A stretch of 64,000 bases of DNA from an uncultured Ilumatobacteraceae bacterium (GCA_965659595.1 CBFHWN010000001.1:9139-73138); one strand, 5' to 3'. Shown: positions 35,854 to 44,753, counted from the stretch's first letter. Program-made: numbers and translations. The notes: generated by a model from the sequence alone, not told the origin.

Positions 35854-37581
35854 TCACCGAGATTCGAGTGCTGCGACCGACTCGACTCGCCAGCCCCGCC
35901 CTGACAACCCGTCGTCCAGCCAGCGCCGCAGGGCCAAGGTGGCTTTCACGTCGTCGGCGTTGTACCGCAGAAGTTTGTCGGCCATCGCCTCTCGATCGGG
36001 GTGATCAGGGTCGCAGGCGATGCGGTACCAGAGGATGGAGTTGGCACCGCCGGCGTCCTCGGCGTCCCAGGCGAACCCCGACAGTGGGGCGAGGTCCTTG
36101 AGGCCGAGCCGACGCGTGGGCCAGTGGAATCGCTTGGCGAGGTCGTGCATGTCGACCCACCAGTCGTTCGCGACCAGAGCACCGATCTGGTCCACTGACG
36201 GAACACCTGGGGCACCATTGGCCCGAGCCGAGGCTTCTTTCATCCGCGGAATCTCGGCGAAGCCGCCCGAATAGCAGTAGACCGCAATGGTTCGCCCCTC
36301 GCTCTCGACACGCTCGACTGTCAGATGCAGCCAGGTCCAGAAGTCGGCGAGTAGTCGGGCCTCGACCTGCGAGTCGGTGCGGTCGTACGAGTGGAACGAG
36401 AGATACTCGCCATCGGTCCAGTGACCATCGGTCGTGCGCTCACTGATCCAACAGCCGTACATGTAGACGATGTCGTCGTTCTCGATATCGAAATCGATCT
36501 CGACGTCGGCGCGTGGCATCACCACCCGCTCGGCGTGACGCTTCAGATAGGGACGGCCGTCGTCGCGCAGGAAAACCCGGGCGGTGTCGATGTGGGTGGC
36601 GAGTTGGGAATAAGTGGGTACCGGATTGTGGTCGAGGTGCACCGGGTCGAGCGCGGCCAACTGCGGAATGGTCTCGATTCCCCCTTCGGCCAATTTGCGA
36701 ACGGCGAGAACGCCGACTCCTTGCAACAGCGACACGTGCTGTTCGGCGACGAGTTCGGACTCGCACACGTCGTGCCAGCGGCACGTCTTGCACTCGTCGC
36801 GATACACGGGCCGGGTGTGCGGTCGGTCGTCGTTGCGAATGGCGAGGACGGCCGCCCAACGCGCCGTCCACTCGGCAGTTGCCTGGGCGAGAAGCGAGTC
36901 CTTGCCCTCGTCGAGCAACCGCCAGGTGACACCCAGACCGCCACCGTCGGGACCGGGGTTGATGGTGCCCCCGACGGGCGGGATCTCGGGCGCGTACCCG
37001 AGGTCGACCAACATCAGCCAGTAGTGCGCGAGTTGCAGACCGTGATCGGACTTCGCCTTTCCCGGTCCGAGCTCGGTGGGAGCGGCCGCTTCGAACCACG
37101 GTTCGGCGAGCGACGACACGGGCCAGGGTCGGGGTTTGGCCGACCCTTCGAGTGGTTTGGAGTTCTTCACGTCGACCGGCAGATAGGCCCACTTGCCATT
37201 GTCCATCTTCTGGTCGCCGAAGCGAACGAGGACGTCGGGACGACCGCCTCGATGTTCGATCACCGGCAGCGACGCACCGATGATCAGACGATCGCCGCGG
37301 ATCATGGCCGCCACCGTGGCCTCGTCGACGTCGTCGAACAGTCGCATCGACGACACACCGTGAAGCCGTGACAACTCGTCGAAGACCTCCGATTCGAAGT
37401 CAAGACCCTCGTCGAAGCGCATCTGCTGCTGATCGTCGACCGGAAGGAGAGCGAGGCCGTCGTAACGCTCGTTGCGGTCGTTGACCTCGCGATGAGCGCA
37501 CCCCACCACGAAACGCGAACCTCCGAGGTCGGAAGCCTCGAGAGCCGAGGAATCGAAGTGGTCAGCGGACGACGAGGCCAT
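35854..37581 (-). CDS. RecB-like nuclease (Cas4-type PD-(D/E)XK with Fe-S Cys cluster) fused to an RNase-H-like (YprB/DEDD-type) exonuclease domain; TM0106-family architecture
   Basis: N-terminal half: GGRPDVLV (Asp), PVDVKNSK (D-x-K), QLAHYW (QxxxY), CKTCRWHDVC (C-x2-C-x5-C) and an N-terminal Cys (VVGCAH). C-terminal half: EIDFDIEND (DxE), YCYSGGFAE and YNADDVKAT. Confidence 0.8.
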   Translation of the reverse strand: MASSSADHFDSSALEASDLGGSRFVVGCAHREVNDRNERYDGLALLPVDDQQQMRFDEGLDFESEVFDELSRLHGVSSMRLFDDVDEATVAAMIRGDRLIIGASLPVIEHRGGRPDVLVRFGDQKMDNGKWAYLPVDVKNSKPLEGSAKPRPWPVSSLAEPWFEAAAPTELGPGKAKSDHGLQLAHYWLMLVDLGYAPEIPPVGGTINPGPDGGGLGVTWRLLDEGKDSLLAQATAEWTARWAAVLAIRNDDRPHTRPVYRDECKTCRWHDVCESELVAEQHVSLLQGVGVLAVRKLAEGGIETIPQLAALDPVHLDHNPVPTYSQLATHIDTARVFLRDDGRPYLKRHAERVVMPRADVEIDFDIENDDIVYMYGCWISERTTDGHWTDGEYLSFHSYDRTDSQVEARLLADFWTWLHLTVERVESEGRTIAVYCYSGGFAEIPRMKEASARANGAPGVPSVDQIGALVANDWWVDMHDLAKRFHWPTRRLGLKDLAPLSGFAWDAEDAGGANSILWYRIACDPDHPDREAMADKLLRYNADDVKATLALRRWLDDGLSGRGWRVESVAALESR

Positions 37582-38872
37582 GATCTTCGTGATACTTCCA
37601 GAACTTGGTGTGCTGGGCGTGACCGCGCCCCACCACGTCGTCGCGTCCGAGTGCTTGATCGGCCGCTGGCAAGTGGGAGTCGAGTGTGTGACCCACGCCG
37701 TCTCGAGTGACGAAGAAGCAGGCCGAGCGATGTCGAGATGCCATCACGCACAGTCGGCCGGTCTCGAGATCGAACGAACTCGGTACGAGAACTCCCGACA
37801 GCGGATGCACGGCGATCATGACAGGACGTTGCAGACCCTGCCACCGTTCGGGTGTGGTCACCCGAATCCCATCGGACCCCACGAGACGCGACGGCAGAGC
37901 TCGCTCGATGGCCGAATTCATGAGATTGTGCGTCGACGAGATACCGATGTGACCCGGTGCGAGCGGGCGCGCAGCGTCGCGCTCGTGAGACTCGGACGAG
38001 AACACGCACTGCAGATCGATGAGTCGCTCGGCGAGGTGAGCCACCAGTTCGGCGAGTTCGGTGTCGGGGTCGACGGCAGCACCCGATGTGTCGGTGGGAT
38101 GCGTGAGCACGACCGTCGACGACTCCTGGATCGCTCCGACGGCCCGGTCGACGGAGGAGTCGGGATCGAGCGGACGCATCGGGCGCAGGAATCGCTCCCC
38201 CGGCTCAGCCTTCGCTTCGAAGTGAAAGTCGTAAAAGTTGCGCACGAGTCCCACCGAATCGTGGGGAAGTCGCCAACAGGTGTCGAGATGCAGTTCAGTG
38301 GTGATGGCTCGTAATTCAGGATTGGAGAGAATGACGTCGGGTGCCGGTCGGTGCGGCGCCACCGGTGACACCTCCCAGCGGTCGACGTCGACCGACACGA
38401 CCGGCGGGATCTGACCCGGATCGCCGATGAGGACGAAACGCGCTGCGACATCGCGCAAGGTGAGAAGGTCGGCCCAGGTCATCTGCCACCCTTCGTCGAC
38501 GAACACCACGTCGTACGACTGGTCGTCGTCGGTGATGGCCCATTTCGACACCGTGGCCACCACGATGGAGGGGCCGGCTGGTAGAGCGTCGCGATCGGAG
38601 ATCACGATCACGTTGGGAGGCAGTTCACCGCGATAGCGAGACGACGAAAAGCGCACGATCTCGACCTGCGGGTACGTCTCGGCGATCTGTTCACACAGGT
38701 CGTCGACCTGGTTGTTGGTCTGAGCGGCTACGACCACTCGAAGTTCGGAATCGATGACGACCGCCAACGATTGCACGAGGTTGAACGACTTGCCCGAGCC
38801 GGGAGGCGCCTTCACCACACACAGGCGCCGGTCGGACACGAGGAACGACCGGAGGTCGTCGACAACGCTCAT
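37562..38872 (-). CDS. Compact SF1 helicase / AAA ATPase (DNA2/Upf1/RecD-like)
   Basis: 436 aa from ATG 38872. Walker A KAPPGSGKS, motif Ia VVAAQTNNQVD, Walker B VVFVDEGWQ, motif III LIGDPGQIPP, motif V/VI-like TTPERWQGLQRPVMI and RLCVMASRHR. It has an ATGA overlap with the upstream gene and a 20-nt overlap with the downstream gene. Confidence 0.8.
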   Translation of the reverse strand: MSVVDDLRSFLVSDRRLCVVKAPPGSGKSFNLVQSLAVVIDSELRVVVAAQTNNQVDDLCEQIAETYPQVEIVRFSSSRYRGELPPNVIVISDRDALPAGPSIVVATVSKWAITDDDQSYDVVFVDEGWQMTWADLLTLRDVAARFVLIGDPGQIPPVVSVDVDRWEVSPVAPHRPAPDVILSNPELRAITTELHLDTCWRLPHDSVGLVRNFYDFHFEAKAEPGERFLRPMRPLDPDSSVDRAVGAIQESSTVVLTHPTDTSGAAVDPDTELAELVAHLAERLIDLQCVFSSESHERDAARPLAPGHIGISSTHNLMNSAIERALPSRLVGSDGIRVTTPERWQGLQRPVMIAVHPLSGVLVPSSFDLETGRLCVMASRHRSACFFVTRDGVGHTLDSHLPAADQALGRDDVVGRGHAQHTKFWKYHEDHGLVVR

Positions 38873-40353
38873 TGGTCGACCTCGACCGACTCGAGGACCA
38901 CACCGTCGTCGTCGTAGGCCGCGTGTCGAGACGGTGGCGACAAAAGGAACGAAGTGATGTCGCGGTCGACCTGCACCCGCGCCGCCTTGATCTTCTTGCG
39001 CATCACTCCGAACGGTGCGTCGGGCAACAGGACGAGTCTGACGCCAGTCCACCGAGCGTCACCCGATGCCCTTTCGAGAGGAGCCGAGGATTTGGCTCGC
39101 TTCCATTTGGGGAAGAGGGTCAGGCGACGTCCTTCGAGGTCGACCTCGATCACGTCGAGGCGCATGTTCGGATGACCGGCGATCGTCAGCGTCTTTCCGG
39201 CCTCGATGGTCGTGAGATCGGGGTACGTGTAATGAACGGACCATTCGTCAGCCGCCACCACCCTCACCTCGGCAATGATTCCCTTGCCGGCCGCCAGCTC
39301 TTCTCGTTGGAGCTCTCGGTCTCCGTGAACCAACAAGAAACGTGCTTCGTCGTCATCGGCCACGCGAGCGTGATACGAACCGGCGGCCGCGCGCGCATTG
39401 TGATCGGTGAACACGTTCGGCCAGTAGGGCGGCAGGCCGGCCGCCTCGTTCATGGCTCTCTCTCCCCACGCCAGGTAGAACGACTTGGCGCTGGATGTCA
39501 CGAGTTTGGCCAGGCCGACGTTCGGACGTCGGCGGTCGGAGCGCAGTTGGGTGATCACTGATGCGGTGAGATTCCATCGACGTTCGAGTTCAGCCGTGAG
39601 CACCTGATGAATCGACCGTGCCGTTGCCTCGGAACGATCTTCGCCCCATGACGACACGAGCGGCTGGAGGTCTCGGCGTTCGCTCTCGGGATCGAGCGCG
39701 GTCGACACCGACAGACGTTCGGCCTCGTGCGCCGCGGCCCAGCGATCGTCGCGTGAACCTTCGGTACGCAGCCAAGCCAACAGGTGACCAAGATGCGCCT
39801 GTCGCACCGGTGACGTGGGGAAGACGTAGGCCGAACGCAAGGCGTCGGTAGCGGTGGCGACCACCTGTTGACCTGGTCGTTGCGCCTCGAGAAACAACGC
39901 GTTGCACAGATTGCCGAGTGCTCGTAACGAAACGACATCGGAACGTTCCCAGCGTGTGCGCGCGTAGGCGGCGGCGAGGAACTGGATCATTTCGAGGTGA
40001 GTGGCTCCGGGCAGCCAGAGTTGGCGCAACGACTGCGTCTGAAAACCGCCCGGACCATCGGCATGCCACTGCGGATGTCGAAAGTGCCGCAGGAAGACGG
40101 GTGCGACGTCGATCATCATGTCGGCGACCAGATCGCGGTTGCGGGCTTCGGGAACCGTGACGACGGTGGGTCCGTCGGCCAACGTTCCGACGGCCACTCC
40201 CCACGGACGGGATTCACCACCCATGCGAAGGAACGCCGCGATCAGAACGTCGTCGTCGCCGGCCACGTGACGATTGATCGAGGCCCCACGATCGGTGGGG
40301 TGCCCGACGTGCCAGGTCTGGATCCGGCGGGTGGTCTCGAGATCGCCGCTCAT
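38869..40353 (-). CDS. Hypothetical protein (494 aa), no recognisable domain
   Basis: Long clean ORF with ATGA overlaps at both ends (40350-40353 and 38869-38872). The composition is protein-like. I found no catalytic or nucleotide-binding motif. Confidence 0.7.
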   Translation of the reverse strand: MSGDLETTRRIQTWHVGHPTDRGASINRHVAGDDDVLIAAFLRMGGESRPWGVAVGTLADGPTVVTVPEARNRDLVADMMIDVAPVFLRHFRHPQWHADGPGGFQTQSLRQLWLPGATHLEMIQFLAAAYARTRWERSDVVSLRALGNLCNALFLEAQRPGQQVVATATDALRSAYVFPTSPVRQAHLGHLLAWLRTEGSRDDRWAAAHEAERLSVSTALDPESERRDLQPLVSSWGEDRSEATARSIHQVLTAELERRWNLTASVITQLRSDRRRPNVGLAKLVTSSAKSFYLAWGERAMNEAAGLPPYWPNVFTDHNARAAAGSYHARVADDDEARFLLVHGDRELQREELAAGKGIIAEVRVVAADEWSVHYTYPDLTTIEAGKTLTIAGHPNMRLDVIEVDLEGRRLTLFPKWKRAKSSAPLERASGDARWTGVRLVLLPDAPFGVMRKKIKAARVQVDRDITSFLLSPPSRHAAYDDDGVVLESVEVDQ

Positions 40354-41429
40354 GGAAGCTCCGGCAATCCGTCGTCGAGTCGGGCGAGCAGATCGCTCTC
40401 GACACGTGTTGTCGGTGCAGCACCGGCGAGAAGTTCGTCGAGTCGCGCGAGCGACACGCCGTTCAGGAATTTCTCGACGTCGTCACCGAGCACGACACCG
40501 CGTCCGAGTTCACGCGCGCGCTCGTGGCAAAATTCGGCCCGTTCACAAAAGGTGAGACACGAATCCTGAAAATACGTGTCCGCGTGGCTCACGAGATCGA
40601 AGAGGGACTCGGGATCGTCGTCGTCTCCCGAGCCGTACTGGCCGTCGAGCAGATGAGCCGACTCCTCCATGAGTTCGAACCCGCGCTCGGCACGCGCGAG
40701 TTGATACGCAAGGTCTTCACCACTGCGCACACTCGGCTGATTGGAGCCTGGGTACGTGAGAACGAGAAATCCAGTGCGCGAGACGTGAACTCGATCGGAC
40801 AGTCCGAGACCGGCAAGGGTGACGTCGAGAGCATGGACGTAAAGGCCCATCTGGGCGCGAGCCGTGGCCAGATCGTGACGGCCGGTGTGGCCACCTTGAT
40901 CGGCGTAGGTCTTGATCTCGCCGACCGCAATCATCGGAGTGGGACCCGAGGTCTGCACAGCTAGGACGTCGATGATGAGAATGGCCTCCGGCAGCATGAT
41001 GCCGCGCGGGATGCGCACCGTGAGACTGGAGACGACACCGTCGAAACGCCGACCCTCAGCGAGAGCGACGAGGAACTCGTGGCCGTGCCGAACAGCATCG
41101 TCAAGATCGACGAGCGAGCCACCGTTGGCGCTCGTACGGTGATCGACGAAATCGGACGACTGCTCGGAGATCACTTCGGCACGAACGAGTGCGTCGAGAA
41201 GGCGTGCTCCCCCGTCACGCACGAGTCCGTCTTCGAAGCTTCGACCGCGTGCGAGGGCGAACACCGATTGTCCGTCACGCGGTGCCGACGGATTCTCACG
41301 GCGAGCGACTGCGCCCATCTTCACGTTGTGCACGGCCGACACGACGTTGGCGTGACACTGCGGGTTACGCGCCCACTGCTCGAAACGACGCCTGGTCTCT
41401 CGAGTCGATCGTTGGTTCGTCCCGTTCAC
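40350..41429 (-). CDS. PD-(D/E)XK nuclease with Cas4/AddB-like four-Cys (iron-staple) signature
   Basis: IIDVLAV (Asp), AVGEIKTY (E-x-K) and ARAQMGLYVHAL (QxxxY). There is one N-terminal Cys (NPQCH) and three C-terminal Cys (CLTFCERAEFC). The GTG start at 41429 has no SD, so the transcript may be leaderless. Confidence 0.7.
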   Translation of the reverse strand: MNGTNQRSTRETRRRFEQWARNPQCHANVVSAVHNVKMGAVARRENPSAPRDGQSVFALARGRSFEDGLVRDGGARLLDALVRAEVISEQSSDFVDHRTSANGGSLVDLDDAVRHGHEFLVALAEGRRFDGVVSSLTVRIPRGIMLPEAILIIDVLAVQTSGPTPMIAVGEIKTYADQGGHTGRHDLATARAQMGLYVHALDVTLAGLGLSDRVHVSRTGFLVLTYPGSNQPSVRSGEDLAYQLARAERGFELMEESAHLLDGQYGSGDDDDPESLFDLVSHADTYFQDSCLTFCERAEFCHERARELGRGVVLGDDVEKFLNGVSLARLDELLAGAAPTTRVESDLLARLDDGLPELP

Positions 41430-41481: not shown

Positions 41482-42099
41482 TCAGAAGGGCTTCAGGGCG
41501 ACGAATTGGACGACTGAACTCACTCCGTCGTGCAGTGGGCCTTCTTGGATCGGCCGCTCGAGGGAGCGGTGCACGTCGAGTTGCCATCCGGCGAACGCTG
41601 CTTCGAGTTCGGACAGCTCGACCGTGAGGTCGGAGTCCTGCGGGCCGCCCACACCCCGACCGATGTTGGCGGCGTCATACGACTCGACGACGAAACGCCC
41701 TCCTGGCCGCAGAGCGCGTCGGACGTTGTCGTGCTCTTCGATCCGCACTGCGGACGGCACATGACAAAAGATCGAGACGATCGAGTCCACGGCTTCGTCT
41801 CCCATGTCGTAGGTCGCAAGATCGGCCACGCGTGCGTCGATATTCACGCCCCGTTCAGCCGCCAGACGGCGGGCCTTGTCGACCCCGACCGGACTGAGGT
41901 CGATGGTGGTCACCCGATGGCCGAGTTGCGCGAGGAATACACCGTTGCGGCCTTCGCCGTCGCCGAGGACCAAGGTGTCGCCGATCGTCAGGTCACCGGA
42001 GACATCGCGGAGAAAGTCGTTGACTTCGGTGCCGAAGGCGTACTCGTCAGCGCCGTAGCGCTGATCCCAGAACTCACCAGGCGACGACATATCGGTCAT
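41482..42099 (-). CDS. Class I SAM-dependent methyltransferase (small-molecule type, TehB/Methyltransf_11-like)
   Basis: 205 aa from ATG 42099, which makes an ATGA overlap with the upstream stop. Motif I is [11 protein letters not shown], and the N-terminal [14 protein letters not shown] is typical of this family. Confidence 0.85.
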
Positions 42100-44654
42100 A
42101 CGAAGAAGTCGCGTAGCGCAGCGGCCATCTGGTCGCGCACTGGCCGCCCCGACGGCAGCACGTCGACCATGCCGACCGACGTGTGCGTGTGGCCTCGTGC
42201 CTGGATGTGCTGAACCTGAACACCGGCCGCCTTCAGAGCCTGCGCGTAGGCATTGCCCTCGTCCCGCAACGGGTCGTATTGCGCGGTCACGATGGCGACC
42301 GGCGGCAGACCCGCTAGCGACTCGGCGAGGAGCGGCGACGCCTTCGGATGCGAGCGATCCGATGGGTCGGCGTAATGGTTCCAGAACCAATTCATCAACG
42401 CCTTCGTGAGCACGTAGCCCTCACCGTTCTCATGCATCGACGGGTACTCCTTCGAGCCATCGGTGGCCGGAGTCAGGAGCAACTGACCCTTGAGCACTGG
42501 TCCTCCGTTATCGCGGGCCAGCTGGGCCGACACCGTCGCCACGTTGCCACCGGCGCTCCAACCGGCCACGGCGATACGCGCCGGGTCTCCGCCGAGTGAC
42601 GCGGCATTCGCAGCTACCCATTGCAGTGCGGCATAGGCGTCGTCTGCCGCAGCCGGGAAACGATGTTCGGGCGCATGCCGGTAGTTGACGGACACGATCA
42701 CGACACCTGCCTTGACGCACAGGTCACGACACAGTGGATCGTCGGACGTGTGACTGCCGATCACCCAGCCACCGCCGTGGTAGTAGACCACCACCGGATG
42801 CGGTCCGGGCGACGCCGGCCGATAAAGGCGGTATTCGATGGGCCCGTCGGCTCCCGGAAGGGTGCCGTCGACGATCTCTCCCACCTCGGGCCCGGGAGGA
42901 CGTACCGTCGACGACATGTCCATGAACATGCGAGCGTCGGGCGGTGACATCGATTCGATGGGTGGCAAATCCAGCATCGCCATGGCCTCGAGCAGCATTT
43001 CGACGTCGGGCTGAATCTCACGAACCAGGCCCTCGTTCTTCGACGACGCACCCGAACCGGCCAGTTCGAAACCGAGATAATCCCGCGCCCGCACTTCGTC
43101 GCAGATCCTTCGATAGCGGCCGACGCCGCCGATGTAGGGGAACAGAACACGCGGCTTGCCGGGAACATTGGCTCCCATGTACCACGAGTTGGTGTCTTGG
43201 AAGAGTGTGATGTCAGCGCAATCGGCACAGTGCTGACGCCAGCCCTCCTCGGCCATCGGCGTGGGTTCGATCGTGTCAAGGCCCTTGTCGCGCATGTCGA
43301 CGATCGTGTCGCGGATCCACTCCACGTGCTGCTCGATCGACATCATCATGTTCGACAGCACCGACGGGCTTCCCGGACCGGTGATCATGTAGAGGTTGGG
43401 GAAACCCACCGACGTGAGTCCGAGATACGTGAGTGGTCCGTTCTCCCATTTCTCCTTGAGAGTGAGGCCGTCCTTACCAGTGATGTCGACGGCCACGATC
43501 GCACCAGTCATGGCATCGAAACCCGTGGCATAGATGATCGAATCGAACTCCTTCGATTCGTCGCCGAAGTCGATACCGGTCTCGGTGATCGAGCGGATGG
43601 ACTTGGTGTTCAAATCGACCAACCGAACGTGCGGAAGATTGAACGTCTCGTAGTAGTTCGTGTCCATGCACGGACGCTTGGTGCCGTACGGGTATCCCCG
43701 CGGACTGAGAAGTTCGGCCGTCTGAGGATCCTTCACGATCGACCGGATCTTGCCGCGCACGAACTCGGCCACGACCTCATTTGCTTCACGACTCGTGCCG
43801 GCATCCATGAAGGTGGCGCCCACCGCCAGCAACTCACCGCGCTGCCACGATTGCTCGAGGAGAGCATTGGCTTCGTCGCGCGGTATGGCGAGTGCCGACA
43901 CCGTCGACGGAGTGACGGGCACACCCGAATACGAGAGCCGAGACTCGGCTTCGTACGTAGCACGATCGGCCTTCAATCGAGCCGCACGATCGGCCGGCTG
44001 AGGTCCGTTGAGCGCTGGCACCGAGAAGTTGGGTGTGCGCTGGAAGATCACGAGTTCCTTCGCCTGTTCGGCGATGTGCGGAATCGACTGGATACCCGAC
44101 GATCCGGTGCCGATCACCGCCACGCGCTGTCCGGTGAAGTCGACTCCTTCGTGTGGCCAACGGCCCGTCACATAAACCGGGCCCTGATAACGCCCGGTTC
44201 CCGAAATGTCGGGGTCCTTCGGGACCGACAGACAACCGGTGGCCATCACGTAGTGACGACACGTGATCGTCTCCCCCGTCGACGTGTGCACATGCCATCG
44301 CTTGGCGACCTCGTCCCACTCGGCGCTCTCGACCTTCACCTCGAAGTCGATACCCGAATACAGATCGTGCTTCTTCGCGACGAACTGCGCGTACTCGAGG
44401 ATCTCGGGTTGCGCGGCGTGCTTTTCCGACCACGTCCACTGCTCGTGCAGTTCGGGATCCCAGGTGTACTGGTAGTCGGTGGTGGCGATGTCACAACGCG
44501 CACCCGGGTAGCGGTTCCAGTACCACGTGCCGCCGACGTCCTTGCCGGTTTCGAGCACACGCGACGAGAAACCGTTCTTGCGGAGCTCGTGCAACAAATA
44601 CATGCCGGCGAATCCAGCTCCCACCACCACGACGTCGACATCGTTCTTGGCCAT
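42096..44654 (-). CDS. Fusion protein: N-terminal Baeyer-Villiger monooxygenase + C-terminal HSL-family (family IV) alpha/beta-hydrolase esterase
   Basis: BVMO part: [39 protein letters not shown] and [12 protein letters not shown]. Esterase part: [13 protein letters not shown] (HGGG oxyanion hole), GWSAGGN (GxSxG), DPLRDEG (Asp) and GHTH (His). The start is ATG 44654 or GTG 44675. Confidence 0.85.
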
Positions 44655-44753
44655 ACCCCTCGTACCCCCTGCCACCGGTCCCCGACCGGCGACGCCACGA
44701 GTTTCGCAGATCAGCCCCGGTGGCTCAATGTCGACCCGGGGGAAAGGATCGGA

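Follow-up and report, generated by a model that had tools for sequence, protein, structure and literature searches.

What do four overlapping genes that encode two predicted nucleases, a helicase and a protein without a recognisable family do, and does such an operon serve DNA repair or defence? The question is raised by positions 35,854–41,429 of a 64,000-nt stretch of DNA from an uncultured Ilumatobacteraceae bacterium (GCA_965659595.1 CBFHWN010000001.1:9139-73138; the whole stretch is referred to below as the window, and positions are counted from its first letter), where genes A, B, C and D follow one another on the minus strand. On balance, the results lead us to regard A-B-C(-D) as a split DNA2-like end-degrading machine of defence origin. 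Re-reading of the open reading frames (ORFs) and of their junctions confirmed the layout given by a first-pass annotation of the window, namely four minus-strand coding sequences joined by two ATGA overlaps and one overlap of 20 nt:

40350-41429, minus strand: gene A, 359 aa, ORF with a GTG start
38869-40353, minus strand: gene B, ORF of 494 aa
37562-38872, minus strand: gene C, ORF of 436 aa counted from its ATG
35854-37581, minus strand: gene D, ORF of 575 aa
40350-40353, minus strand: stop/start overlap ATGA of A and B, reading CCATGAGC at 40353-40350
38869-38872, minus strand: stop/start overlap ATGA of B and C, reading CAATGAGC at 38872-38869
37562-37581, minus strand: 20-nt overlap of C and D, with the ATG of D at 37581 and the TGA of C at 37562-37564

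The mechanical ORF of gene C extends past the ATG to a GTG at 39052. The start that yields the 436-aa product is favoured because the homologues of C start at the same Met, right after the stop of B.

The locus search, which covered one genome per GTDB species, returned 77 loci, and in every one of them whose contig reaches far enough, A lies directly upstream and C directly downstream of B on the same strand. Together with the motif conservation described below, this recurrence lies far outside what chance would produce. The loci span at least six phyla. Their hosts are Acidimicrobiia, mostly metagenome-assembled genomes (MAGs) of freshwater Ilumatobacteraceae/acIV, as well as Gemmatimonadota (Palauibacter), Planctomycetota, Acidobacteriota, Burkholderiales, Myxococcota/Polyangiales and Solirubrobacterales, with about 49 of the matching GTDB species representatives being acidimicrobial. 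Gene D follows C in all 39 acidimicrobial loci that reach past C, where the two are coupled, and is missing from all 26 loci found in other phyla. What recurs as a unit in evolution is A-B-C, not A-B-C-D, and D is a lineage-specific addition of the Acidimicrobiia version, seen only there. Of the four-gene unit proposed by the first-pass annotation, the A-B-C core stands, being colinear in the 77 loci and present across phyla well outside the source genome, whereas D, restricted to Acidimicrobiia, falls outside the unit. Neither a conserved fourth gene nor conserved flanks were found outside Acidimicrobiia; apparent conserved flank clusters there turned out to be antisense high-GC ORFs or to come from close relatives. 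Two copies of the module, L074 (8881-12242) and L077 (8836-12948), are decaying, with A frameshifted at its C-terminus, B in fragments and D missing; the system can therefore be lost and is not essential. Several records that carry the acidimicrobial operon (L002, L006, L007, L015, L022, L024, L034 and L070) are titled ‘uncultured Bifidobacterium sp.’ or ‘Bifidobacterium breve’, labels that look like placeholder or erroneous taxonomy of acidimicrobial MAGs.

Natural fusion proteins join A to B (P0248, P0327, P0328) or B to C (P0359, P0376), always in the order of the operon; a fusion was accepted only if the protein aligned to both partners. No full A-B-C fusion in a single chain occurs among the 150 best relatives of B. 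A 942-aa ‘B-C fusion’ ORF in L062 (10072-12900) was rejected, as the frame check revealed an artefact of high GC content. The fusions and the start/stop overlaps argue for a joint action of A, B and C in a single physical complex, the formation of which is considered probable. The opposite view, that the four genes are merely adjacent and form no functional unit, could draw on their position within a longer same-strand run with short gaps: 52 nt separate the end of an upstream S-adenosylmethionine (SAM)-dependent methyltransferase gene from gene A, and 49 nt lie between gene D and the start of a downstream acyl-CoA ligase gene, so close on the same minus strand that spacing alone does not isolate the operon. 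The gene order kept in the 77 loci across phyla, the start/stop overlaps and the fusions effectively refute it. Scans for promoter and terminator consensus sequences around the operon found none, scans for Rfam elements and tRNA genes at its boundaries were empty, and the base composition of the window (62–65% G+C) is unbroken at the locus.

Judging by its motifs and its model, protein A is a Cas4/AddB/DNA2-type PD-(D/E)XK nuclease with 1+3 cysteines and a putative 4Fe-4S cluster. The motifs noted at first pass (D...ExK, QxxxY and the 1+3 Cys pattern) are all present:

40911-40970, minus strand: catalytic core of A, D154 ... E171-x-K173 (IIDVL ... GEIKTY), invariant in two alignments
40527-40559, minus strand: cysteine triad of A, C291-x3-C295-x5-C301, partner of C25 (41355-41357)

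Residues C25, D154, E171, K173, Q193 and Y197 are invariant among 14 cross-phylum sequences (24–50% identity), and D154, E171, K173, Q193 and Y197 are also invariant across 36 close sequences. The conservation of C291, C295 and C301 is at least 90%, the sole exception being the frameshifted copy of L074; their spacing is C-x3-C-x5-C, as compared with the canonical C-x2-C-x5-C. In the AlphaFold2 (AF2) model, the core of A is confident and the overall predicted local distance difference test (pLDDT) value is 70, with low values around the cysteines, as is expected because the model contains no cluster. The top Foldseek match of the model is MGME1 (2.8e-4), followed by weaker ones that include Cas4 SSO0001, AdnAB, Cas4-Cas1-Cas2, RecE, RecB, AddB and Dna2; almost all of the top 30 are PD-(D/E)XK exonucleases, and their E-values are modest. 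No match to A was obtained in Pfam, NCBIfam, PADLOC or PHROGs at E ≤ 0.1, and its profile returned only noise from the PDB sequences. The first-pass annotation had counted A and D as two distinct iron-sulphur (Fe-S) nucleases; both nuclease assignments stand, and the Fe-S clusters are suggested by the Cys patterns and the fold.

Protein C, described earlier as a compact superfamily 1 (SF1) helicase, is indeed one: it matches Pfam AAA_11 with 50.7 bits (cut-off, 27), and AAA_30 as well, and across 70 homologues there is next to no variation in its helicase motifs I, Ia, II, III, V and VI. Its sequence identifies it as a minimal SF1B (UPF1/DNA2-like) helicase that consists of two RecA domains only:

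38786-38809, minus strand: Walker A motif of C, APPGSGKS, aa 22-29, with P23, P24, G25, G27 and K28 invariant

When a profile built from 15 diverse homologues was compared with all PDB sequences, the best match was the helicase domain of mouse DNA2 (1.6e-15), with IGHMBP2 (3e-15), Upf1/Nam7 (~1e-13), Sen1, Aquarius and nsp13 next. In PADLOC, the best match of C is MkoA (3.8e-12, partial, helicase motifs only), accompanied by a partial RecD-like match, and a marginal match to RecD motifs was found in NCBIfam. By analogy with its family, C would move in the 5′→3′ direction on single-stranded DNA (ssDNA). The possibility that the system targets RNA, with C as a UPF1/Mokosh-MkoA-like RNA helicase and the nucleases degrading transcripts, should be mentioned at this point, given that besides DNA2 the closest relatives of C are the RNA helicases IGHMBP2, Upf1 and Sen1 and that MkoA heads its PADLOC matches. 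We regard it as highly improbable: the profile matches DNA2, an enzyme acting on DNA, better than any other protein, C is partnered by DNA nucleases of the Cas4/AddB and DEDD types, SbcCD accompanies the sister clade described below, the bacterial DNA2-like enzyme Bad is a DNA translocase, and the match to MkoA covers helicase motifs alone.

Protein B, the orphan of the operon, is confidently modelled by AF2 (pLDDT, 89; predicted template modelling score, 0.87) and is composed of three regions:

40009-40353, minus strand: N-terminal alpha/beta domain of B, aa 1-115, with the invariant RMGGESRPW (AF2, alignments)
39289-40005, minus strand: helical middle of B, aa 117-355, with long paired helices and the invariant QRPGQQ and HGDRELQxEEL
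39019-39279, minus strand: C-terminal six-stranded beta-barrel of B, aa 359-445 (AF2 strands)

A profile search among 1.84 billion representative proteins detected 467 relatives of B, nearly all of about 500 aa. The earlier impression that B belongs to no recognisable family was fully upheld, as neither Pfam, NCBIfam, PADLOC nor PHROGs contains a matching family and the profile of B returned only noise from the PDB sequences, the DNA2 chains not being matched. Foldseek detected no full-length structural relative in PDB or BFVD (best TM-scores, ~0.1–0.17), while about 90 residues of the barrel match the N-terminal crown barrels of F1-ATPase subunits (Foldseek probability, 1.0). The fold of B (494 aa), predicted with confidence and without an equivalent in PDB or BFVD, merits structure determination for its own sake.

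Stalk helices and a beta-barrel placed ahead of RecA1 are a hallmark of UPF1/DNA2-like helicases (PMC11090510). Protein C starts at its Walker A motif and therefore lacks the stalk and barrel typical of its helicase family; helices and a six-stranded barrel are found at the C-terminus of a separate protein, B, encoded immediately upstream of C. A single-chain enzyme offers a close comparison. Bad of Geobacillus stearothermophilus (WP_053413574, 1245 aa) has an Fe-S RecB nuclease at its N-terminus and an SF1B helicase at its C-terminus; of the central domain of about 500 aa, Wilkinson et al. (PMC7430649) predict a short coiled coil and otherwise state that ‘no information can be gleaned’. Bad acts as a 5′→3′ ssDNA translocase/helicase and an ssDNA endonuclease, prefers 5′ overhangs and has a sporadic distribution, and its role in the cell is described as unknown (PMC7430649). 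The operon has the same order as Bad and DNA2 (a nuclease with four Cys, an unassignable central part and an SF1B helicase), and this order is fixed in the 77 loci. Taken together, A, B and C amount to 1289 aa, compared with the 1245 aa of Bad, the central portions are comparable, and A-B-C, like Bad, is sporadic. The middle of B has long paired helices, and for the centre of Bad, too, no more than a coiled coil is predicted. The reading of A-B-C as a split DNA2/Bad-like enzyme thus follows from the same order, the similar size, the absence of a stalk and barrel from C, and the presence of such elements at the end of B. Based on the model, the barrel of B is proposed to be a detached stalk/1B-type accessory module of helicase C, and, by analogy with the central domain of Bad, which it matches in position, B is proposed to be a scaffold linking nuclease and motor.

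As the first-pass annotation had it, protein D combines a Cas4-like nuclease with an RNase-H-like exonuclease and belongs to the TM0106 family, passing NCBIfam TIGR03491 (TM0106-family RecB-like nuclease) with 161.7 bits (cut-off, 97.45):

36742-37581, minus strand: Cas4-like putative Fe-S PD-(D/E)XK domain of D, aa 1-280, with conserved residues
35917-36519, minus strand: RNase-H-like (DEDD, YprB/MrfB-type) exonuclease domain of D, aa 355-555 (Pfam RNase_H_2, 2.1e-8)

Invariant in 31 homologues are C28, D116, D137, K139, Q183, Y187, C264, C267 and C273 of the first domain, as well as D363, D365, E367, Y540 and D544 of the second; hence the catalytic residues predicted for A, C and D are conserved in the homologues of all three proteins. 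No match to D was found in PADLOC.

These assignments suggest how the complex might operate. C would be an ATP-driven SF1B motor moving 5′→3′ on ssDNA from a free end or a 5′ tail, and A would cut the strand fed to or from this motor. The C-terminal helices and barrel of B would supply the stalk/barrel module missing from C; the N-terminal two thirds of the protein would serve to bind A and perhaps also to recognise the substrate, and B may gate access as well. Assembled in this way, A-B-C would load on a free DNA end or a 5′ tail and degrade DNA while unwinding it. In the acidimicrobial version, D would add a second Cas4-like nuclease and a 3′–5′ DEDD exonuclease, such that both strands of a duplex end could be degraded, as in the design of AddAB and RecBCD; in the actinomycete clade, SbcCD might perform an accessory end processing comparable to that of D. 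At the level of the family, we infer that the most likely role would be the destruction of linear or replicating foreign DNA.

The genomic neighbourhood of A-B-C differs between lineages. Outside Acidimicrobiia, 107 flanking ORFs from 19 loci were scanned with Pfam and PADLOC, and the acidimicrobial flanks served as an internal control. The Pfam matches in the non-acidimicrobial flanks included ResIII (3), N6_Mtase/HsdM (2), GmrSD (2), SIR2 (2), AAA_15 (2), AAA_21 (2), nSTAND (2) and an IS21 helper (1); those in PADLOC comprised MTase_I (three times), a type III methyltransferase, PtuA (twice), HEC-05, PD-T4-6 (twice), MADS components and ZorB. Among the genes located immediately downstream of A-B-C in these lineages are those for GmrSD, AbiTii and a Septu-like ATPase. 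The acidimicrobial flanks, on the other hand, encode a glutamate racemase (murI-type), Ham1/RdgB, RNase PH, a PilT-like ATPase, Met aminopeptidase and uridine kinase, and their DNA-related genes are those for the photolyase-related DPRP (four times) and RmuC (three times). In the window itself, the neighbouring genes code for an alkyl sulfatase, an aldehyde dehydrogenase, a rhamnosidase-like protein, a monooxygenase-esterase fusion and amidohydrolases; the window flanks contain neither a tRNA gene nor an integrase gene, in agreement with the earlier description of metabolic flanking genes without visible mobile elements. The A-B-C family appears to behave as mobile defence-island cargo, and the four-gene version of the window is a stable chromosomal resident. 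The choice between defence and repair that had been posed at first pass can be sharpened accordingly, the context being that of a defence island outside Acidimicrobiia and a housekeeping one in the window's own clade.

A weak tblastn match of A led to a Streptomyces plasmid with three overlapping genes, A′, B′ and C′, for which RefSeq gives the labels hypothetical protein (two of the genes) and ‘AAA domain-containing protein’ (the third). A′ and B′ are related to A and B (hhalign probabilities, 96.7 and 95.1), and C′ shares 35% identity with C (1e-57). More than 1100 relatives of B′ occur in Streptomyces, Kitasatospora, Nocardia, Amycolatopsis, Micromonospora and other genera, all hypothetical and with no Pfam domain. 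The sister operon has the form X-A′-B′-C′ (L078, 3212-7207; L080/L081, 7971-12845; L082, L086, L087, L088), where X is a sister-clade-specific protein of 264–284 aa that belongs to no family and has no equivalent at window-type loci. In most cases, the operon is oriented divergently from an SbcD-SbcC pair, which co-varies with the operon, and its neighbours include Wadjet, BREX, McrBC, type I restriction–modification, DarTG, Mrr, NACHT/STAND proteins and transposases. PADLOC contains no match to X, A′ or B′, nor to A and B from the other phyla. In Micromonospora (L084, 11506-19601; L085, 10309-18419), B′ and C′ are separated by an insertion of about 8 kb with genes for a CYTH protein, a PLD/DUF3427 helicase, DarT-Macro (DarTG) and an Mrr-type nuclease, the operon serving as a landing site for such defence genes.

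Streptomyces copies of the sister operon, SbcCD included, are located at the ends of replicon records or no more than about 50 kb away: at 11,849,789-11,871,297 of 11,904,336 in L081, in the last 20 kb of a 9.27-Mb chromosome in L088, and in the last 12 kb of a 186-kb plasmid record in L078. The loci of Amycolatopsis, Micromonospora and Dactylosporangium are mid-chromosomal. C-like helicases (30–33% identity) were also found in 71 plasmid records, namely on megaplasmids of Rhodococcus, Mycobacterium, Arthrobacter and Euzebya, where they are preceded by an ORF of about 65 aa and a hypothetical protein of 400–450 aa (L089, 5422-8143; L090, 5382-8131; L091, 5293-8185). The partner of the Euzebya helicase (L091) was rejected as a homologue of A or B because the hhalign result was not significant; one stretch of it resembles the QRPGQQ...WL region of B/B′. 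The end location in Streptomyces may mean that the operon is connected with linear-replicon ends, or it may be due simply to chromosome arms being accessory in nature. Should the former apply, the module might serve the replicon that carries it, in end processing or in transactions of plasmid, conjugative or linear-telomere DNA, and its presence near linear Streptomyces replicon ends and on plasmids, as well as the C-like helicases common on Rhodococcus, Mycobacterium and Arthrobacter megaplasmids, would fit. Such a role is nonetheless improbable, since tblastn found no match to window-type B in 72,556 plasmids or 50,697 phages and none to A in the phages, the other sister loci are mid-chromosomal, the acidimicrobial loci occupy core chromosomal contexts, and Streptomyces chromosome arms are where accessory and defence genes accumulate in any case.

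Several points weigh against the reading of A-B-C(-D) as a split DNA2-like machine of defence origin. With respect to its architecture, B has no sequence or Foldseek match to the barrel/stalk region of Dna2, as DNA2 is absent from its top 50 Foldseek matches; the F1-ATPase crown resemblance of its barrel is generic; and weak hints connect it with the replicases of nidoviruses and endornaviruses. RNA is a frequent substrate of UPF1-like helicases, and the fusion proteins are metagenomic gene calls, some of which could be frameshift artefacts. With respect to defence, 117 flanking ORFs from 20 acidimicrobial loci yielded no defence match except for the RmuC domain, and downstream synteny with metabolic genes is kept among the close relatives of the window. 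The defence reading of the window copy is thus carried over from other lineages because its own clade is without defence flanks.

The latter observations are also those which would support a different role of the acidimicrobial operon, i.e., housekeeping resection and repair of double-strand breaks, in which it would substitute for AddAB, AdnAB or RecBCD and have no dedicated role in immunity. In favour of this role are the housekeeping context of the 20 diverse loci, DNA-related DPRP and RmuC genes included, the synteny among close relatives, and the metabolic flanks of the window with neither tRNA nor integrase genes. The same may be said of the exonuclease domain of D, which we take to be of the YprB/MrfB repair type, of the pairing of the sister operon with SbcCD, and of the combination of two nucleases and a motor, which follows the logic of AddAB. 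Still, a housekeeping repair role seems rather unlikely to us: the core is sporadic across phyla and resides in defence islands elsewhere, it is clade-restricted and not universal (the acidimicrobial species representatives number about 49, as given above), and decayed copies occur (L074, L077).

Preferring, on these grounds, the split defence-derived machine, we consider the window copy a chromosomally fixed derivative, which may have kept a defence function or, like RecBCD, may combine defence with break processing. Expressed differently, the window version may be a fixed defence system in streamlined genomes without defence islands, or a repair machine derived from, or ancestral to, a defence module. 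It is possible, and put forward here tentatively, that A-B-C constitutes an unrecognised, phylum-spanning innate immune family, with a sister clade common in Streptomyces, Nocardia, Amycolatopsis and Micromonospora, in which B, as a regulatory or sensing subunit, licenses the nuclease-helicase on foreign ends, while D, or SbcCD together with X, prepares the substrate. If this is true, it would provide the first physiological role for bacterial DNA2-like (Bad-type) enzymes. A defence function would also add an unnamed multi-gene system that is absent from PADLOC, NCBIfam and Pfam, and would extend the theme of end processing that licenses immune nucleases (Druantia III, RecBCD). If the operon acts in repair in Acidimicrobiia, it would reveal the way in which DNA breaks are resected by abundant freshwater actinobacteria and would exemplify the domestication of a defence module, or the reverse. 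In either case, bacterial DNA2-like enzymes have been characterised biochemically, and the operon family, with its natural fusions and genomic associations, is a genetic handle on their cellular role, for which the sister clade offers cultured hosts (Streptomyces, Nocardia).

As for the remaining ORFs of the window region, the others listed within A-B-C-D are antisense or out-of-frame products of high G+C content. Antisense ORFs that lie over real genes, e.g., at 36391-37371 (+), 37580-38314 (+) and 38872-39561 (+), reach up to 326 aa, and artefacts of this kind can imitate gene fusions. The upstream methyltransferase ORF (41482-42390, minus strand; TTG start, 302 aa) runs into the end of the monooxygenase gene; its Pfam domains fit a product of about 203 aa that starts near 42093, and the 302-aa ORF is probably over-extended. 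Two genes upstream of A (42096-44675, minus strand) lies the gene for an 859-aa protein in which a flavin (Baeyer-Villiger-type) monooxygenase is fused to an alpha/beta-hydrolase esterase and which is about 91% conserved in the closest relatives (L001, L049).

How, then, does the operon compare with known systems? The first-pass annotation had stated that the combination matches no named system, and this holds. The combination is not without precedent, for DNA2 and Bad, which that annotation did not take into account, share its domain order and the profile of C matches DNA2 best. In PADLOC-DB v2, the counterpart of any named anti-phage system was searched for, with zero matches for A, B and D and a partial one, to helicase motifs only, for C. 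Neither A, B, the A-B-C module nor the four-gene operon is named in Pfam, NCBIfam (June 2026), PADLOC v2, PHROGs or the searchable literature, and the operon is not described in the literature on TM0106, Cas4 phylogenomics, Streptomyces defence, BREX-related systems, SbcCD in combination with defence, or DNA2-like anti-phage proteins; a DNA2-like helicase/nuclease fusion has been noted there beside BRIGADE defence loci. Unlike Bad and DNA2, the operon encodes A, B and C as three separate coupled proteins, fused at most in part as A-B or B-C, and, unlike Bad, its acidimicrobial version carries D as an additional dual nuclease. All eukaryotes have DNA2, which is essential to them (PMC7430649), whereas A-B-C is clade-restricted.

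In common with AddAB, AdnAB and RecBCD, the operon appears to encode a multi-subunit helicase-nuclease, with a nuclease activity for each of the two strands where D occurs; according to Foldseek, A resembles the ‘iron-staple’ PD-(D/E)XK nuclease of AddB and AdnAB, and C would be an SF1B motor like RecD. RecBCD also defends against linear phage DNA. Unlike AddAB and RecBCD, the operon has no SF1A UvrD-like motor and no RecC/AddB-type scaffold made of an inactivated helicase, the fold of B being unrelated; hidden Markov models (HMMs) of UvrD, AddA, AddB, RecB and RecC from Pfam and NCBIfam gave no match in A–D beyond the marginal RecD motif. The fold of Cas4 recurs in A and in the N-terminal domain of D, as do its D...ExK and QxxxY motifs and its four cysteines in a 1+3 arrangement. 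Yet CRISPR arrays, cas genes and matches to Cas4 HMMs are absent, and A (359 aa) has a long N-terminal extension and cysteines spaced C-x3-C-x5-C. Genes for Cas4-like proteins are known in other helicase contexts, in fusion or in an operon with UvrD, or with YprA (PMC5704561). These contexts differ from that of A-B-C.

D resembles the TM0106 and YprB-MrfB proteins, as it scores above the TIGR03491 cut-off and its C-terminal Pfam RNase_H_2 domain corresponds to the YprB-type DEDD exonuclease. TM0106-family proteins usually stand alone, whereas D is coupled to a helicase-nuclease core, and its partner is an SF1B helicase and not one of the superfamily 2 (SF2) YprA/MrfA type. Similar to Druantia III, Hachiman, Mokosh, Zorya (ZorD) and Nhi/Hna, in which an ATP-driven translocase is coupled to nucleases on DNA ends or forks, A-B-C resides in defence islands outside Acidimicrobiia; in Druantia III, DruE is licensed by the exonuclease processing of DruH, which closely parallels D and A-B-C in function. 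As judged from PADLOC, none of these defence systems has a homologue of A, B or D, and the helicases of Druantia and Hachiman belong to SF2. While the enzymology of A-B-C(-D) is of a known kind, that of DNA2/Bad with AddAB-like features, its division into separate proteins, the orphan subunit B, the accessory nucleases that differ between lineages and the association with defence islands are new.

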